Source: Armatimonadota bacterium (GTDB lineage Bacteria > Sysuimicrobiota > Sysuimicrobiia > Sysuimicrobiales > Humicultoraceae). From it: a stretch of 64,000 nucleotides of DNA. Under the pieces are notes generated by a model. The model searched no databases. It had not been told where the DNA came from and saw only the letters and a list, made by a program, of their open reading frames with translations. Every line of letters starts with the position of its first letter. The stretch's first letter is position 1. The translations under genes and the position numbers were made by a program. The stretch is taken from assembly GCA_037443365.1 (NCBI GenBank), contig JBBIOM010000003.1:1-64000 (forward strand), in the 5' to 3' direction. Positions 929-6,828 of the stretch are shown here, in pieces.

Positions 929-944
929 ACTGGTCATGACCAGT
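929..944. promoter_or_regulatory. Perfect 16-bp palindrome ACTGGTCATGACCAGT, putative GntR/FadR-family operator
   Basis: Exact inverted repeat just upstream of the RBS and the ATG at 960. The TGGT-N4-ACCA core resembles FadR/PdhR/LldR-type sites. A partial extra copy (TGGTCAT) lies at 921. Confidence 0.65.
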
Positions 945-959
945 TAGGGAGAGGGACTT

Positions 960-4640: not shown

Positions 4641-5743
4641 AGACCAGGGTCGCGGTCCTGGGCGCCGGGAACGGCGGGCATGCCTTTGCCGGCGACTTGG
4701 CCCGGCGGGGCTACCCGGTCTGGGTCTACAACAAGTTCGCCTCAGAGATAACGGACCTGCAGGCGGCAGGCGAGGTGCGGGTTGAGGGCGTCGTGGATGG
4801 AAGCGGGCGCCTGGAGGCGATCACGACCGACATCGCCGCGGTCGTGCCCGAGGCCGACGTCATCCTCGTGGTGGTCCCGGCCACGGCGCATGCCGCCATG
4901 GCCGAGGCCGCGGCTCCCTACCTGCGGGACGGGCAGGTCATCGTGCTCAATCCCGGCCGCACAGGCGGCGCCCTGGAGTTCAGCCAGGTGCTCCGGCGCT
5001 GTCGCGTGGAGCGCCGCGTGCTGGTCGCAGAGGCCCAGACCCTCCTGTTCGCGTGCCGCATCTCGGGCCCGGCGCGCGTGCGCGTGAACAGCATCAAGCG
5101 CGAGGTGCCGCTGGCCGCGCTGCCTGCCTGCGACACCCCGCGCGTCCTCGAGGCCATATCTCCCCTGTACCCCCAGTTCGTCGCGGCGCAGGACGTGCTG
5201 GAGACCGGGCTGGACAACATCGGCGCCGTCTTCCATCCCGGCCCGGTGGTGCTGAGCGTAGGGCGCATCGAGTCGGGCTCCCCGTTCGAGTTCTACCGCG
5301 ACATCACGCCCACAGTGGCGCGCTTCCTGGAGGCGATCGACGAGGAGCGCCTGGCCGTGGCGCGCGCCTTTGGAGTGCGCGCGATCTCGGCGGCCGAGTG
5401 GCTCGCTCGCAGTTACGAGGGCGTGCAGGGCGCGACGCTCTACGAGCGCATCCGCAGCAACCCGGCCTACGCGGGCATCGCCGCCCCGAACTCGATCGAG
5501 ACGCGCTATGTGCTGGAGGACGTGCCCACAGGGCTGGTGCCCATCGCCTCGCTCGGGCGCCTGGCCGGGCTGGAGATGCGCGCGATGGCCGGTCTGGCCG
5601 ATGTGTGCTGCGCGCTCACCCGGCGCGACTTCTGGGCCGAGGGCCGCAATCTCCAGCGCCTGGGAATCGCAGGCCTCACCGTGGAGGAGGCCGGGGAGTT
5701 CATACGCAACGGGCCCCAGGCAGGGTGGGCGGACCGGCGATGA
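4637..5743 (+). CDS. NAD/NADP octopine/nopaline (opine) dehydrogenase family protein
   Basis: Rossmann motif AVLGAGNGG, LNPGRTGGALE, NIGAVFHP and RYVLEDVPTGLVP. GTGA overlap with the upstream gene. Confidence 0.9.
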   Translation: MKTRVAVLGAGNGGHAFAGDLARRGYPVWVYNKFASEITDLQAAGEVRVEGVVDGSGRLEAITTDIAAVVPEADVILVVVPATAHAAMAEAAAPYLRDGQVIVLNPGRTGGALEFSQVLRRCRVERRVLVAEAQTLLFACRISGPARVRVNSIKREVPLAALPACDTPRVLEAISPLYPQFVAAQDVLETGLDNIGAVFHPGPVVLSVGRIESGSPFEFYRDITPTVARFLEAIDEERLAVARAFGVRAISAAEWLARSYEGVQGATLYERIRSNPAYAGIAAPNSIETRYVLEDVPTGLVPIASLGRLAGLEMRAMAGLADVCCALTRRDFWAEGRNLQRLGIAGLTVEEAGEFIRNGPQAGWADRR

Positions 5744-6828
5744 GGGTCATCACCCTGGCGGGCGATCACTACGAGATGGGGCTCCAGCACGGCCGGCAGA
5801 CTCTCGACCTGCGCCCGCGCCTGGTACAGGTCATCGAGCAGCGCATCGCCGGGTTGGAGGGCACGCCCGTCGCCGGGCTCCTCCCAGAACTGGAGCGTCG
5901 TTGGGCCGTGATCGCGCGCCCCACGCTCGACATGCTCGCGGGCATGGCCCGGGCGCTCGATCTGGACCCCTCGCGCTTCCTTTGCTACGCGGCGGCTTCC
6001 TACCTGGAGGATAGCGCGCGCTCCAATCTGCCGCTTGGGGAGCGTGATGTGTGGGAGGGCGCGCCCGCAGAGGGGTGCACGGTGTGGGCGGCCTCGGGCG
6101 AGGCCACGGCCGACCGCATGCCCATCCTCGCCAAGAACCGCGACTACAACCTCGCGCACCTGGACCTCCAGGTCCTGGCGCGCGCCACCCCGCGGGACGG
6201 CTACCGGTACATGTACGTGGCCAGCGCCGGCAGCGTGGGGGTTTCCAGCTCAGGGATGAACGAGGCAGGCCTGACCGTCGCCGACACGCGCGTTGCTTCC
6301 TCTGACGTGGGGCCGGGCTTGGCCAGGTACACCCTGATGATGGAGCTGCTCGAGCGGCATGATTCGGTGCGCTCGGCGTTGCGCTATCTCCGGCGCGTGC
6401 CACAGATGGGCGGGGGCAACCTGATCCTGGCCGACGCGCAGGGCAGCATGGCCGCTTTCGAGTCAGGGTACCAGCACTGGGGGGTCATCTACGCGGAAGA
6501 CCGCCTCGTGGCGGCCACGAATCACTTTGTCACGCCGGCCCTGCGGGGGTGTCGCCTCGGGCCCTCCAGCGGCGCCACCGACGGCGAGAGCCCATCGCGC
6601 CTGCGCTCGATTCGGGCGCGCCTGCGCGAGAGCCGGGGCCGCCTCGATGCCGGGAGCGCCGCGCTCATCATGGCCGCTCACGCCGACGGCCGGGCCGCGA
6701 TCTGCCGGCACGCGCCCGAAGGCGGCAGCGGCACAATCTCGGCCGTCGTCTTCTTCCCGGCAGAGCGGCGCCTGCGTTTGTGCGCAGGGCGGCCCTGCGA
6801 GGGCGCCTACACCCAGCACTCGCTCTGA
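5740..6828 (+). CDS. Peptidase C45 family Ntn-hydrolase/acyltransferase (AAT-like, autoproteolytic Cys)
   Basis: Start MRVITLAGDHYEMGLQHG at an ATGA overlap; EG|CTVWAA nucleophile site, AKNRD, GMNEAGL, ATNHF. The ORF-track start at 5053 is over-extended. Confidence 0.88.
   Translation: MRVITLAGDHYEMGLQHGRQTLDLRPRLVQVIEQRIAGLEGTPVAGLLPELERRWAVIARPTLDMLAGMARALDLDPSRFLCYAAASYLEDSARSNLPLGERDVWEGAPAEGCTVWAASGEATADRMPILAKNRDYNLAHLDLQVLARATPRDGYRYMYVASAGSVGVSSSGMNEAGLTVADTRVASSDVGPGLARYTLMMELLERHDSVRSALRYLRRVPQMGGGNLILADAQGSMAAFESGYQHWGVIYAEDRLVAATNHFVTPALRGCRLGPSSGATDGESPSRLRSIRARLRESRGRLDAGSAALIMAAHADGRAAICRHAPEGGSGTISAVVFFPAERRLRLCAGRPCEGAYTQHSL

Follow-up and report, generated by a model that had tools for sequence, protein, structure and literature searches.

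A B12 mutase-type module and a GlmL-type ATPase in one chain, encoded beside an opine dehydrogenase: a candidate acidic-amino-acid pathway

What reaction would be carried out by a protein that joins a B12-binding domain, a long central region and a GlmL-type ATPase, and why should its gene be coupled to those of an opine dehydrogenase (ODH) and a C45 hydrolase? The question is raised by three overlapping genes at positions 960-6828 of a 64,000-nucleotide stretch of DNA from an Armatimonadota bacterium (this whole stretch is called the window below), which lie 3' of a 16-bp palindrome and whose features are collected in Table 1. The original prediction described the three genes as translationally coupled, and the coordinates confirm this, with a GTGA overlap at 4637-4640 between genes 1 and 2 and an ATGA overlap at 5740-5743 between genes 2 and 3; it also saw in gene 1 a B12 mutase-type module and a GlmL-type ATPase in a single chain, which Pfam, profile and fold comparisons bear out. 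No paper was found in the literature on this fusion or on an operon that pairs such a mutase with an ODH.

Table 1. Features of the three-gene locus, in window coordinates
Feature	Position	Strand	Details
Operator-like site	921-944	no strand	TGGTCA half-site 921-926 and perfect 16-bp palindrome 929-944
Putative ribosome-binding stretch before gene 1	947-955	+	purine-rich; inferred from the sequence
Gene 1	960-4640	+	ATG start, 1226 aa; fusion of B12 domain, GlmE-like barrel and GlmL ATPase
Rossmann-type B12-binding domain	987-1409 (residues ~10-150)	+	C22-x-H24-x-x-G27, S71..L74, G107-G108
(β/α)8 barrel with C-terminal cap, remote GlmE homologue	1512-2909 (residues ~185-650)	+	AF2, Foldseek, hhalign
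Acidic low-confidence linker	2910-3041 (residues ~651-694)	+	pLDDT <50 at residues 655-686
GlmL/MutL-type ASKHA ATPase domain	3042-4592 (residues 695-1211)	+	PF13941
Gene 2	4637-5743	+	GTG start, 368 aa; NAD(P)-dependent ODH of ArODH/CENDH type; R108/G196/H200
Gene 3	5740-6828	+	ATG start, 362 aa; C45 autoproteolytic Ntn hydrolase/acyltransferase; nucleophile Cys113 after Gly112
Run of 100 N (scaffold join)	6843-6942	no strand	

Pfam B12-binding matches residues 13-110 of gene 1 at 25.1 bits, under the gathering cut-off of 32.1, and the domain is confirmed at the level of family profile and fold, the profile matching PDB corrinoid domains with an E-value of 6.5e-8 and GlmS with one of 0.003. 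The glutamate-mutase-type signature (DxHxxG...SxL...GG, with His as the lower ligand) is present as C22-V-H24-N-L-G27, S71..L74 and G107-G108; His24 is retained in 45 of 46 filled alignment rows, and position 22, the canonical Asp of DxHxxG, is Cys in 28 and Asp in 17 of 50 relatives, with Cys in the window protein. Gene 1 gave no match to the Pfam B12-binding_2 cap domain and holds no CxxC or CxxxCxxC Fe-S motif, and phmmer searches of the PDB with gene 1 and with a relative (P0131) returned matches to B12 domains or ATP-grasp proteins only, with no barrel.

The centre of gene 1 was the part that the original prediction could assign neither to glutamate mutase nor to methylmalonyl-CoA mutase or the aminomutases, and for which it raised the question of a TIM barrel. 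Pfam finds no family in residues 101-700 even at E<=10, PF06368 included. The AF2 model (mean pLDDT 89.7) answers the question of fold with a (β/α)8 barrel, whose best Foldseek matches are GlmE (6h9e_B, E 2.3e-15, TMt 0.64; 1cb7_B, E 9.6e-15, TMt 0.66), followed by OraE (3e-11), KamD (2e-10), MCM (2e-7) and IcmF (~2e-5); the top 25 matches are AdoCbl isomerases, with no methyltransferase barrels among them. In hhalign, the family aligns with five annotated GlmE at a probability of 83% (E 8.6e-6, 352 columns), GlmE being the only barrel that aligns at the profile level, and against OraE the B12 domain alone aligned (probability 41%). Judged by model and profile, the centre is a remote GlmE homologue, ahead of the aminomutases and methylmalonyl-CoA mutase, and the view that it could not be assigned has to be given up. 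Pfam Met_asp_mut_E matches 5 of 22 stand-alone relatives weakly, one of them over the cut-off, and an ESM Atlas search with residues 110-690 returned B12-binding and GlmE-like clusters with scores of 0.84-0.87, under the 0.9 lead level.

The likeness may extend in part to the active site. In GlmE, Glu171 contacts the substrate amine, Glu330 contacts the adenosyl ribose, and glutamate is held by Tyr181 and an arginine claw (Arg66, Arg100 and Arg149), all four of which are invariant in the five annotated GlmE. The alignment pairs EGGG of GlmE (E171, the acidic residue after β4) with DGRG (D328), TPHEA (E330, in the H/S-E-A motif) with THSEA (E476), and K326 with V472, whereas the arginines are lost (R66 to H210, R100 to Q246, R149 to Y295) and the Tyr181 loop is deleted; the column register of an alignment of 83% probability is such that single positions may shift by a few residues. 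Within the family, R208, Y295, D328 and E357 are invariant (50/50) and E476 occurs in 48 of 50 members. Because the arginine claw is replaced, gene 1 is not a glutamate-mutase orthologue, which agrees, as does the 14% identity between the barrel and GlmE, with the original prediction that the centre is no clear orthologue of a characterized enzyme; with three arginines replaced and the Y181 loop deleted, the substrate would be bound otherwise than glutamate is. Where OraE has the loop with the PLP-binding lysine, the family profile shows a gap of 4 residues; the family lacks this loop.

The ATPase domain is covered by PF13941 over profile positions 1-450 of 450 (E 1.6e-92, 311.1 bits, cut-off 27), and an annotated GlmL aligns with it by BLASTP at 30% identity (E 7e-62) with an insertion of ~30 residues. 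It scores 290.9 bits against GlmL and 181.1 bits against Or-4, and stays under the NCBIfam cut-offs (NF040745, 290.9 against 475; TIGR01319, 196.4 against 204.05). Nine orthologues all have the DFGST and DIGGATTD motifs unchanged, and the GlmL fusion is a single clade in a quick tree (SH-aLRT 100). An AF2 model of the domain built from 18 sequences was poor (pLDDT 65.9), with a Foldseek match to ASKHA proteins of the hydantoinase/acetophenone-carboxylase type (E 2e-5, TM 0.27) and no diol-dehydratase reactivase among the hits listed for this poor model. A chaperone role for GlmL is stated in the literature and, to our knowledge, poorly documented; a 'reactivase' role appears in one statement in one paper (PMC4682846).

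The partner genes are more readily named. Gene 2 belongs to Octopine_DH (E 5e-43; PF02317, 147.1 bits, cut-off 30) and matches 1BG6 with an E-value of 1.3e-89, its H200 aligning with the catalytic His202; this His is present in 60 of 61 family ODHs. Positions equivalent to A111 and N198 of ArODH are R108 and G196, with Arg in 58 and Gly in all of 61 ODHs. The exchange A111R/N198G turns ArODH towards L-Asp (Telek et al., 2024, PMC10787698), and the same text reports that metagenomic hot-spring ODHs of the R/G type (mODHs) favour L-Asp and L-Glu with pyruvate, a rule that rests on two enzymes. From the Arg/Gly pair, an acidic amino acid (Asp or Glu) is the predicted substrate class. The text of that paper has no discussion of gene neighbourhoods and lacks the words 'mutase', 'gene cluster' and 'neighbo'. 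Gene 3 scores 178.9 bits with C45_proenzyme NF040521 (cut-off 85) and gave no match in a sequence search against the PDB; in the set of C45 proteins Cys113, followed by T/S, and the KNRD motif occur in 14 of 14, and Gly112 in 13, the other (L075) having Ala.

Is this arrangement peculiar to the window? The fused form occurs in at least 150 species genomes, in a family of 386 representatives at 50% clustering, and the neighbourhoods were taken from the best 80 of 150 confirmed fused loci with 7-kb flanks; fusion identity is 62-90%, and 75 of these best 80 loci carry a Chloroflexota label. Of the 55 loci that extend 1.3 kb or more to either side of gene 1, 54 have an ODH gene next to it; the two genes are no more than 400 nt apart in 71 of 73 loci, with intergenic gaps mostly under 150 nt; 50 ODH open reading frames 5' of gene 1 share about 26-32% identity with gene 2 (tblastn). 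Counts across the best 80 of 150 loci are 52 for RpiR, 51 for SBP_bac_5, 34 for C45 and four for GGT, and among the 32 loci with full 7-kb flanks C45 is found in 18 and GGT in one; several of the remaining 13 have an operon that outruns the flank, and with 7-kb flanks on the best 80 of 150 loci the C45 linkage is an underestimate. The co-occurrence anticipated by the original prediction thus holds for the ODH and, in over half of the loci with full flanks, for C45, and its catabolic or biosynthetic module of three genes proves to be part of something larger: the genes do occur together, but the usual operon has nine genes and is linked to uptake, and in it gene 1 and the ODH are accompanied by C45, a regulator of the RpiR type and an Opp/Dpp-type ABC importer. 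The binding protein stays under the NCBIfam thresholds (Opp4A 199.8 bits, NikA 176 bits, CntA 99.6 bits against a cut-off of 800). No PLP enzyme belongs to the canonical operon, and the flanks of the best 80 of 150 loci show no conserved gene for a methylaspartase, mesaconase or adenosyltransferase; a second corrinoid protein within 7 kb is likewise missing from all 80. An MttB-family gene (PF06253, E 1e-90) lies within the operon in nine of these 80 loci, an Orr-like racemase gene is seen in four loci, and the ornithine cluster of L086 holds genes for a dehydrogenase, a B12 mutase, a GlmL-like Or-4 and a racemase together. The mutase module had no tblastn match among PLSDB plasmids.

Taken as a whole, the locus is best explained as encoding a single-chain AdoCbl isomerase with built-in GlmL, working in an uptake-linked pathway for acidic amino acids that includes the ODH, a reading to which we give a probability of about one half. 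It is built on the observed domain architecture, fold, synteny and residue signatures, and from these we infer that AdoCbl is used and that GlmL is a chaperone, and also which class of substrate is involved and in what order and direction the steps run. A GlmS-like, His-on B12 domain would cap the GlmE-like TIM barrel to form an AdoCbl-dependent isomerase, a flexible linker of ~40 residues would join this mutase module to the GlmL/MutL ASKHA ATPase, and the ATPase would most likely be the built-in chaperone or reactivase of its own mutase. The Opp/Dpp-type ABC system may bring in a small compound, either peptide-like or an N-substituted amino acid, from which the Ntn amidohydrolase (C45, or GGT in four loci) would release a glutamate-like acidic amino acid; the four GGT loci, found among the best 80 of 150 and lacking C45, suggest an amide bond of γ-glutamyl type. 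The mutase would then rearrange the carbon skeleton of the acid or of its N-(1-carboxyethyl) derivative in a radical reaction of the glutamate to 3-methylaspartate type, and the adjacent ODH would use NAD(P)H to link the acidic amino acid with pyruvate, or would cut that link. The MttB gene in nine of the best 80 of 150 loci, none of which has a second corrinoid protein within 7 kb, is unaccounted for by this explanation, and RpiR and GntR/HutC regulators, which more often have sugar-derived ligands, count against it. So do the replaced claw arginines, the Cys at the Asp position of DxHxxG, and the want of conserved methylaspartase, mesaconase and adenosyltransferase genes in the flanks of those 80 loci, where nothing conserved explains what becomes of the product.

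A more daring form, tentative and in our view rather unlikely, would make gene 1 the first "opine mutase", an AdoCbl radical enzyme for which the partner ODH makes the substrate, a secondary-amine dicarboxylate (N-(1-carboxyethyl)-L-glutamate, for example), or which acts on the matching imine. The remodelled arginine set would grip the extra carboxylate and D328 would give space to the N-substituent, the ODH and mutase would be an obligate pair, and a B12-dependent opine branch would be widespread in Chloroflexota; in its boldest version, a PLP-independent 1,2-shift would proceed through a keto-acid imine.

Could gene 1 be simply a very divergent glutamate mutase, turning L-Glu into 3-methylaspartate with a fused GlmL in ordinary glutamate fermentation? 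GlmE is the best match in both fold and profile, the ATPase domain scores over 100 bits higher with GlmL than with Or-4 (the values given above), the ODH signature predicts Asp or Glu, and GGT in four loci would free glutamate. This is nevertheless improbable, given the three replaced claw arginines, the deleted Y181 loop, the 14% identity and the lack of any PF06368 match at E<=10; furthermore, methylaspartate ammonia-lyase is absent from the flanks of all the best 80 of 150 loci, whereas it adjoins glutamate mutase in five of five annotated clusters examined.

Decidedly improbable, too, is the chemistry of the original prediction itself, in which C45 frees an amine and the ODH makes a keto-acid imine that replaces PLP as the electron sink of a PLP-independent AdoCbl 1,2-aminomutase. 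The ODH lies beside the mutase in 71 of 73 loci and is translationally coupled to it in the window, the family is without the PLP-lysine loop and the canonical operon without a PLP enzyme, and aminomutase barrels are the second-best structural matches. Set against this, the barrel's E-value with GlmE, an enzyme that rearranges carbon skeletons, is better by four orders of magnitude, and it is with GlmE only that a barrel-wide profile alignment is obtained; no opine dehydrogenase is known to release its imine intermediate. The imine in place of PLP finds no support and aminomutase-type chemistry does not accord with the nearest relative of the barrel, which leaves the original interpretation partly supported overall.

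A staphylopine-like system, in which the ODH would end the synthesis of an opine metallophore that a Nik/Cnt-like ABC importer takes up again, with gene 1 and C45 supplying an unusual amine block, is very unlikely: an ODH with an SBP_bac_5 ABC importer does resemble the cntKLM-ABCDF operon and the binding protein has sub-threshold likeness to NikA and CntA, but the CntA score is far under its cut-off and weaker than that for Opp4A, the regulators are RpiR or GntR/HutC, and gene clusters common to at least four loci include no nicotianamine-synthase-like gene, exporter or metal regulator. Extremely unlikely is corrinoid methyl transfer, with the B12 domain as methyl carrier, the barrel as methyltransferase and GlmL as a RamA/RACo-type activase serving an MttB-family demethylase, for although corrinoid activases are likewise ASKHA ATPases, nine of the best 80 of 150 loci have the MttB-family gene and all 80 lack other B12-binding proteins within 7 kb, 71 of the 80 have no MttB, there is neither a B12-binding_2 cap domain nor a CxxC or CxxxCxxC motif, AdoCbl isomerases make up the whole of the top 25 in the structural search, and the ribose-binding Glu of GlmE appears conserved.

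How, then, does the single-chain isomerase with its ODH compare with known systems? GlmS/GlmE with GlmL (Clostridium cochlearium, 1CCW/1CB7/6H9E) have in common with gene 1 the B12 Rossmann domain, the (β/α)8 barrel and the GlmL-type ATPase. Glutamate mutase, however, is split, with the order S, L, E in five annotated clusters, has DxHxxG and is partnered by methylaspartase, whereas gene 1 is one chain in the order S-E-L, has CxHxxG and is partnered by the ODH, the ABC importer and C45. The nearest precedent for an AdoCbl mutase and its chaperone in one polypeptide is IcmF (isobutyryl-CoA mutase with MeaB, 4XC6), an analogy of design, since the chaperone there is a G-protein and the mutase of the acyl-CoA lineage, unlike the ASKHA ATPase and GlmE lineage of gene 1. 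The D-ornithine 4,5-aminomutase cluster (Ord, OrtAB, OraS, OraE, Or-4, Orr) follows a similar operon logic of dehydrogenase, B12 mutase, GlmL-like protein and, in four loci, Orr-like racemase, but the operons of gene 1 have no PLP-lysine loop, an opine-type dehydrogenase not of the Ord family, and no OrtAB thiolase. Gene 2 resembles ArODH/CENDH (1BG6) in its catalytic His and the mODHs in its Arg/Gly pair; what sets it apart is its gene's setting, an operon shared with a B12 mutase.

The fusion family probably marks an undescribed route for acidic amino acids in Chloroflexota. Few AdoCbl-dependent isomerases are known, and their number has risen slowly; if the proposed reading is true, a distinct and strongly conserved family would be added to them, and with it the first case of a mutase and a GlmL-type ATPase in one chain, which would offer a handle on what GlmL proteins do. 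It would likewise give bacterial NAD(P)-dependent opine dehydrogenases a physiological context and indicate that some nutrient has an ABC system of its own in Anaerolineae, scavengers that abound in sediments and digesters.

The window locus would be a stripped version of this operon, with gene 1, ODH and C45 only, no transporter genes and no cognate GntR gene, leaving a predicted GntR operator as an orphan; no GntR homologue was found in the window. The 16-mer palindrome taken alone is within chance expectation for this GC-rich window (mononucleotide shuffles hold a mean of 2.65 perfect 16-mer palindromes per 64 kb and at least one in 92 of 100), and it gains weight because of its position, ending 15 nt before the start codon of gene 1, and its conservation, since the core recurs in two other loci (L001 and L002) just 5' of a GntR/HutC (UTRA) gene preceding gene 1. 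A scan of 700-7100 detected no promoter or terminator. Downstream, the last ~45 nt of gene 3 are repeated beyond the run of 100 N.

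Pfam and NCBIfam searches returned a full-length MutL/GlmL domain at residues 695-1211 of gene 1 (E 1.6e-92), a sub-threshold B12-binding match at residues 13-110 (25.1 bits against a cut-off of 32.1) and nothing between the two even at E<=10, and they place gene 2 in the Octopine_DH family and gene 3 among the C45 proenzymes (178.9 bits against a cut-off of 85), so the original prediction had described these genes and domains accurately. The genes are joined by 4-nt start/stop overlaps, GTGA between genes 1 and 2 and ATGA between genes 2 and 3. In gene 3 the presumptive cleavage and nucleophile site is G112-C113; the Cys followed by T/S, together with a KNRD motif, is kept in all 14 full-length orthologues, and Gly112 in 13 of these, with Ala in the other. 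At the gene 3 stop codon a 13-nt unit is duplicated in tandem. The stop is followed directly by a run of 100 Ns (6843-6942, flanks 6800-6996) with the preceding ~45 nt repeated immediately beyond, as if two contigs with overlapping ends had been scaffolded together.

Features of the three-gene locus
Feature	Position	Details
Three-gene unit with palindrome	929-6828	three genes on the same strand
Extra TGGTCA half-site	921-926	beside the palindrome
Perfect 16-bp palindrome	929-944	ends 15 nt 5' of the gene 1 start codon
Gene 1	960-4640	1226 aa, ATG start
Gene 2	4637-5743	368 aa, GTG start
Gene 3	5740-6828	362 aa, ATG start

The central region of gene 1, which had been judged not assignable to glutamate mutase or the other B12 mutases, can in fact be assigned. 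From an alignment of 50 sequences AlphaFold2 modelled residues 1-700 with confidence (mean pLDDT 89.7, pTM 0.77); the model has a Rossmann domain, eight β-strands interleaved with helices (~206-471), a helical cap and a disordered linker (655-686). The top Foldseek match in the PDB was the glutamate mutase subunit GlmE (6h9e_B, E 2.3e-15; 1cb7_B, E 9.6e-15, TMt 0.66), aligned at 14% identity over about 490 columns, followed by D-ornithine aminomutase OraE (3e-11), lysine 5,6-aminomutase KamD (2e-10) and the methylmalonyl-CoA mutases (about 2e-7). Profile-profile alignment of the family (relatives of the gene 1 mutase module, GlmL-fused and stand-alone) with five GlmE genes annotated in plasmid and chromid records, one of them sharing its residue numbers with the C. 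cochlearium crystal structure as far as residue ~350, gave a probability of 83% and E 8.6e-6 over 352 columns; with OraE, the B12 domain alone aligned and the barrel did not. The centre is thus a TIM barrel of the AdoCbl-isomerase class, with GlmE as its nearest relative.

Searching residues 1-700 against 1.84 billion cluster representatives yielded 386 relatives at E<=1e-3, 89 of them at E<=1e-30; alongside the fused orthologues there is a large stand-alone set of 540-630 aa, 30-41% identical to gene 1 across residues ~190-525. A scan of 22 representatives (19 stand-alone) brought B12-binding matches in 16 and weak Met_asp_mut_E matches in five, one of the latter exceeding the Pfam cut-off. 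Two stand-alone relatives carry partner domains of peptide-bond enzymes: P0131 is fused to an ATP-grasp (glutathione-synthetase/RimK-like) domain, and P0139 has a weak, sub-threshold Peptidase_M15 match. A quick maximum-likelihood tree built for the mutase module groups the ten GlmL-fused proteins in a single clade (SH-aLRT 100), which sits within the stand-alone forms. The GlmL domain itself aligns with annotated GlmL over its entire length (30% identity, E 7e-62) with an insertion of ~30 residues, nine orthologues all keep its ASKHA phosphate-binding motifs unchanged, and it scores 290.9 bits with the GlmL model and 181.1 with the ornithine-pathway Or-4 model, below both curated cut-offs; its structure model was poor (pLDDT 65.9) and the structural matches uninformative. 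GlmL/MutL is described as a reactivating chaperone (PMC4682846), and source annotations call the gene 1 protein type "glutamate mutase L" or "TIGR01319 family".

The active site is unlike that of GlmE. With the single-column register of the 352-column alignment being uncertain, GlmE Arg66 corresponds to family H210 (R208 lies two residues before), Arg100 to Q246, Arg149 to Y295 (R293 two residues before), Glu171 (EGGG) to D328 (DGRG) and Glu330 (TPHEA) to E476 (THSEA), and the Tyr181 loop is deleted. All six GlmE residues are invariant across the five references and belong to its active site, the three arginines forming the claw. The family fixes a different polar set, with R208, Y295, D328 and E357 in 50/50 relatives, S238, R330 and H470 in 49/50, and H210, Q246, R437 and E476 in 48/50, so that fused and stand-alone members have one active site in common, distinct from GlmE's. 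The lower-ligand motif is CxHxxG: 45 of the 46 filled rows have its His, and Cys occupies position 22 in 28/50 relatives and Asp in 17/50. The 50-relative alignment contains no radical-SAM or other Cys cluster. Strictly speaking, then, the family is not glutamate mutase, and gene 1 is unlikely to be an ordinary one, since the arginine claw is lost and methylaspartase, which adjoins all five reference GlmE clusters, is absent from the flanks of all 80 family loci analysed. Rather improbable, too, is the aminomutase originally proposed, in which a keto-acid imine from the ODH (opine dehydrogenase, gene 2) replaces PLP: the OraE loop that carries the PLP lysine is indeed absent from the family when aligned with OraE, but the barrel's closest kin is a carbon-skeleton mutase. 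Gene 1 would instead be an AdoCbl isomerase of the GlmES lineage, new in its fused accessory ATPase and its operon context; a full-text literature search found no paper on such a fusion or on a mutase-ODH operon, and the N-terminal 690 residues are covered by no NCBIfam model.

Scanning one genome per species turned up relatives at 150 loci. The best 80 of these (62-90% identity to gene 1) were analysed with 7-kb flanks by tblastn and ORF clustering, with Pfam for gene identities. Among these 80, 75 are labelled Chloroflexota, and the two closest (89-90%) Armatimonadota and "bacterium". The predicted association with an ODH held up well, in 73/80 loci and in 54 of the 55 with >=1.3 kb on both sides, no more than 400 nt separating the ODH from gene 1 in 71 of the 73 (63 upstream, 10 downstream), with gaps mostly <150 nt; that with C45 held in part, in 34/80 loci and 18 of the 32 with full 7-kb flanks. 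In several of the remainder the operon extends past the flank. Four loci (L061, L064, L067, L068), in which C45 was not found, have a γ-glutamyltransferase (GGT) with an Orr-like (ornithine-racemase-like) PLP enzyme (333 bits against a cut-off of 480), L068 alone adding an Amidohydro_3 enzyme. The usual order is RpiR regulator, ODH, gene 1, SBP_bac_5 binding protein, two permeases, two ATPases and C45. The window has a stripped form: gene 1, ODH and C45 lie side by side, and its 64 kb contain neither an Opp-type transporter nor an RpiR gene. Three loci (L069, L071, L078) have two ODH copies, one beside gene 1 and the other, 43-47% identical to gene 2, ~3 kb upstream.

The ODH offers a clue to the substrate. 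Gene 2 aligns with Arthrobacter opine dehydrogenase 1BG6 (E 1.3e-89), including the catalytic His. Telek et al. 2024 (PMC10787698) describe six hot-spring metagenomic ODHs that favour L-Asp and L-Glu (also cysteate, homocysteate and 2-aminopimelate) with pyruvate, a preference that the authors trace to two positions: the A111R/N198G exchange makes ArODH an L-Asp enzyme, and the opposite double exchange in mODH-582 changes its choice to L-Phe. The equivalents in gene 2 are R108 and G196, and among 61 ODHs beside gene 1 (the window's and 60 ORFs from 58 loci) Arg is found in 58 and Gly in all 61, including 50 ORFs upstream of gene 1, where identity to gene 2 is only about 26-32% (tblastn). Taken with the GlmE-like mutase and with a γ-glutamyl hydrolase as alternative amidase, such an acid-preferring ODH would make the likely substrate an acidic amino acid resembling glutamate, or the N-(1-carboxyethyl) derivative of one, a prediction drawn from a two-enzyme mutagenesis rule.

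In the pathway that I propose, the ABC system would import a compound whose amide C45 or GGT would cleave, gene 1, its activity maintained by the GlmL ATPase tethered to it, would perform an AdoCbl-radical carbon-skeleton rearrangement, and the ODH would form or cleave a pyruvate-derived opine in an NAD(P)-linked step, the last two steps running in either order and either direction. The ornithine cluster of locus L086 (Ord, OrtAB, OraSE, Or-4, Orr) likewise combines a dehydrogenase, a B12 mutase, a GlmL-like protein and a racemase. This pathway does not account for the MttB genes, for regulators of the sugar type or for the lack of downstream enzymes. Non-pyrrolysine MttB-family methyltransferase genes occur in nine loci by tblastn (L009, L055, L058, L063, L065, L072, L074, L075, L078), amid transporter genes in at least six, and gene 1 has the sole B12 domain within 7 kb in 80/80 loci; as rival readings, a corrinoid methyl-transfer system and a staphylopine-like metallophore system are both weakly supported.

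A perfect 16-mer palindrome is no improbable event in a window of 67% GC, with 2.65 expected by chance per 64 kb and at least one in 92/100 shuffles, so the case for an operator depends on position and conservation. In the two closest relatives (L001:6090-7003 and L002:6055-6970, compared with window 840-960) the same palindrome, a putative HutC-type operator, is found ~25 nt before a GntR/HutC regulator gene (GntR plus UTRA), itself located upstream of gene 1. The window lacks this regulator gene, the operator region is fused straight onto the gene 1 ribosome-binding site with a purine-rich stretch before the start codon, and tblastn found no GntR homologue anywhere in the 64 kb, so the putative operator would be an orphan there. 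Just 5' of it, a GC-rich inverted repeat (GGCAGG...CCTGCC, 888-910), kept in L001, may be the terminator of an upstream unit.

Elsewhere in the window (8326-12277), a 674-aa ORF without a Pfam or NCBIfam match (10253-12277) comes after an aldehyde:ferredoxin oxidoreductase gene (8326-10209), and L002 has a homologue of the oxidoreductase (80% identity) ~2.7 kb downstream of gene 1. Three long minus-strand ORFs (625, 774 and 649 aa; 31119-36204 and 40687-42636) without a Pfam match at E<=1e-5 may be real novel genes or antisense artefacts of high-GC sequence. The regions 45461-48404, 49156-54108 and 59860-62807 hold a KatG-type catalase-peroxidase adjoining a Fur-family regulator, and a xanthine-dehydrogenase-like molybdoenzyme cluster that includes XdhC/MobA and CoxE-type maturation genes and an AllH-like gene.
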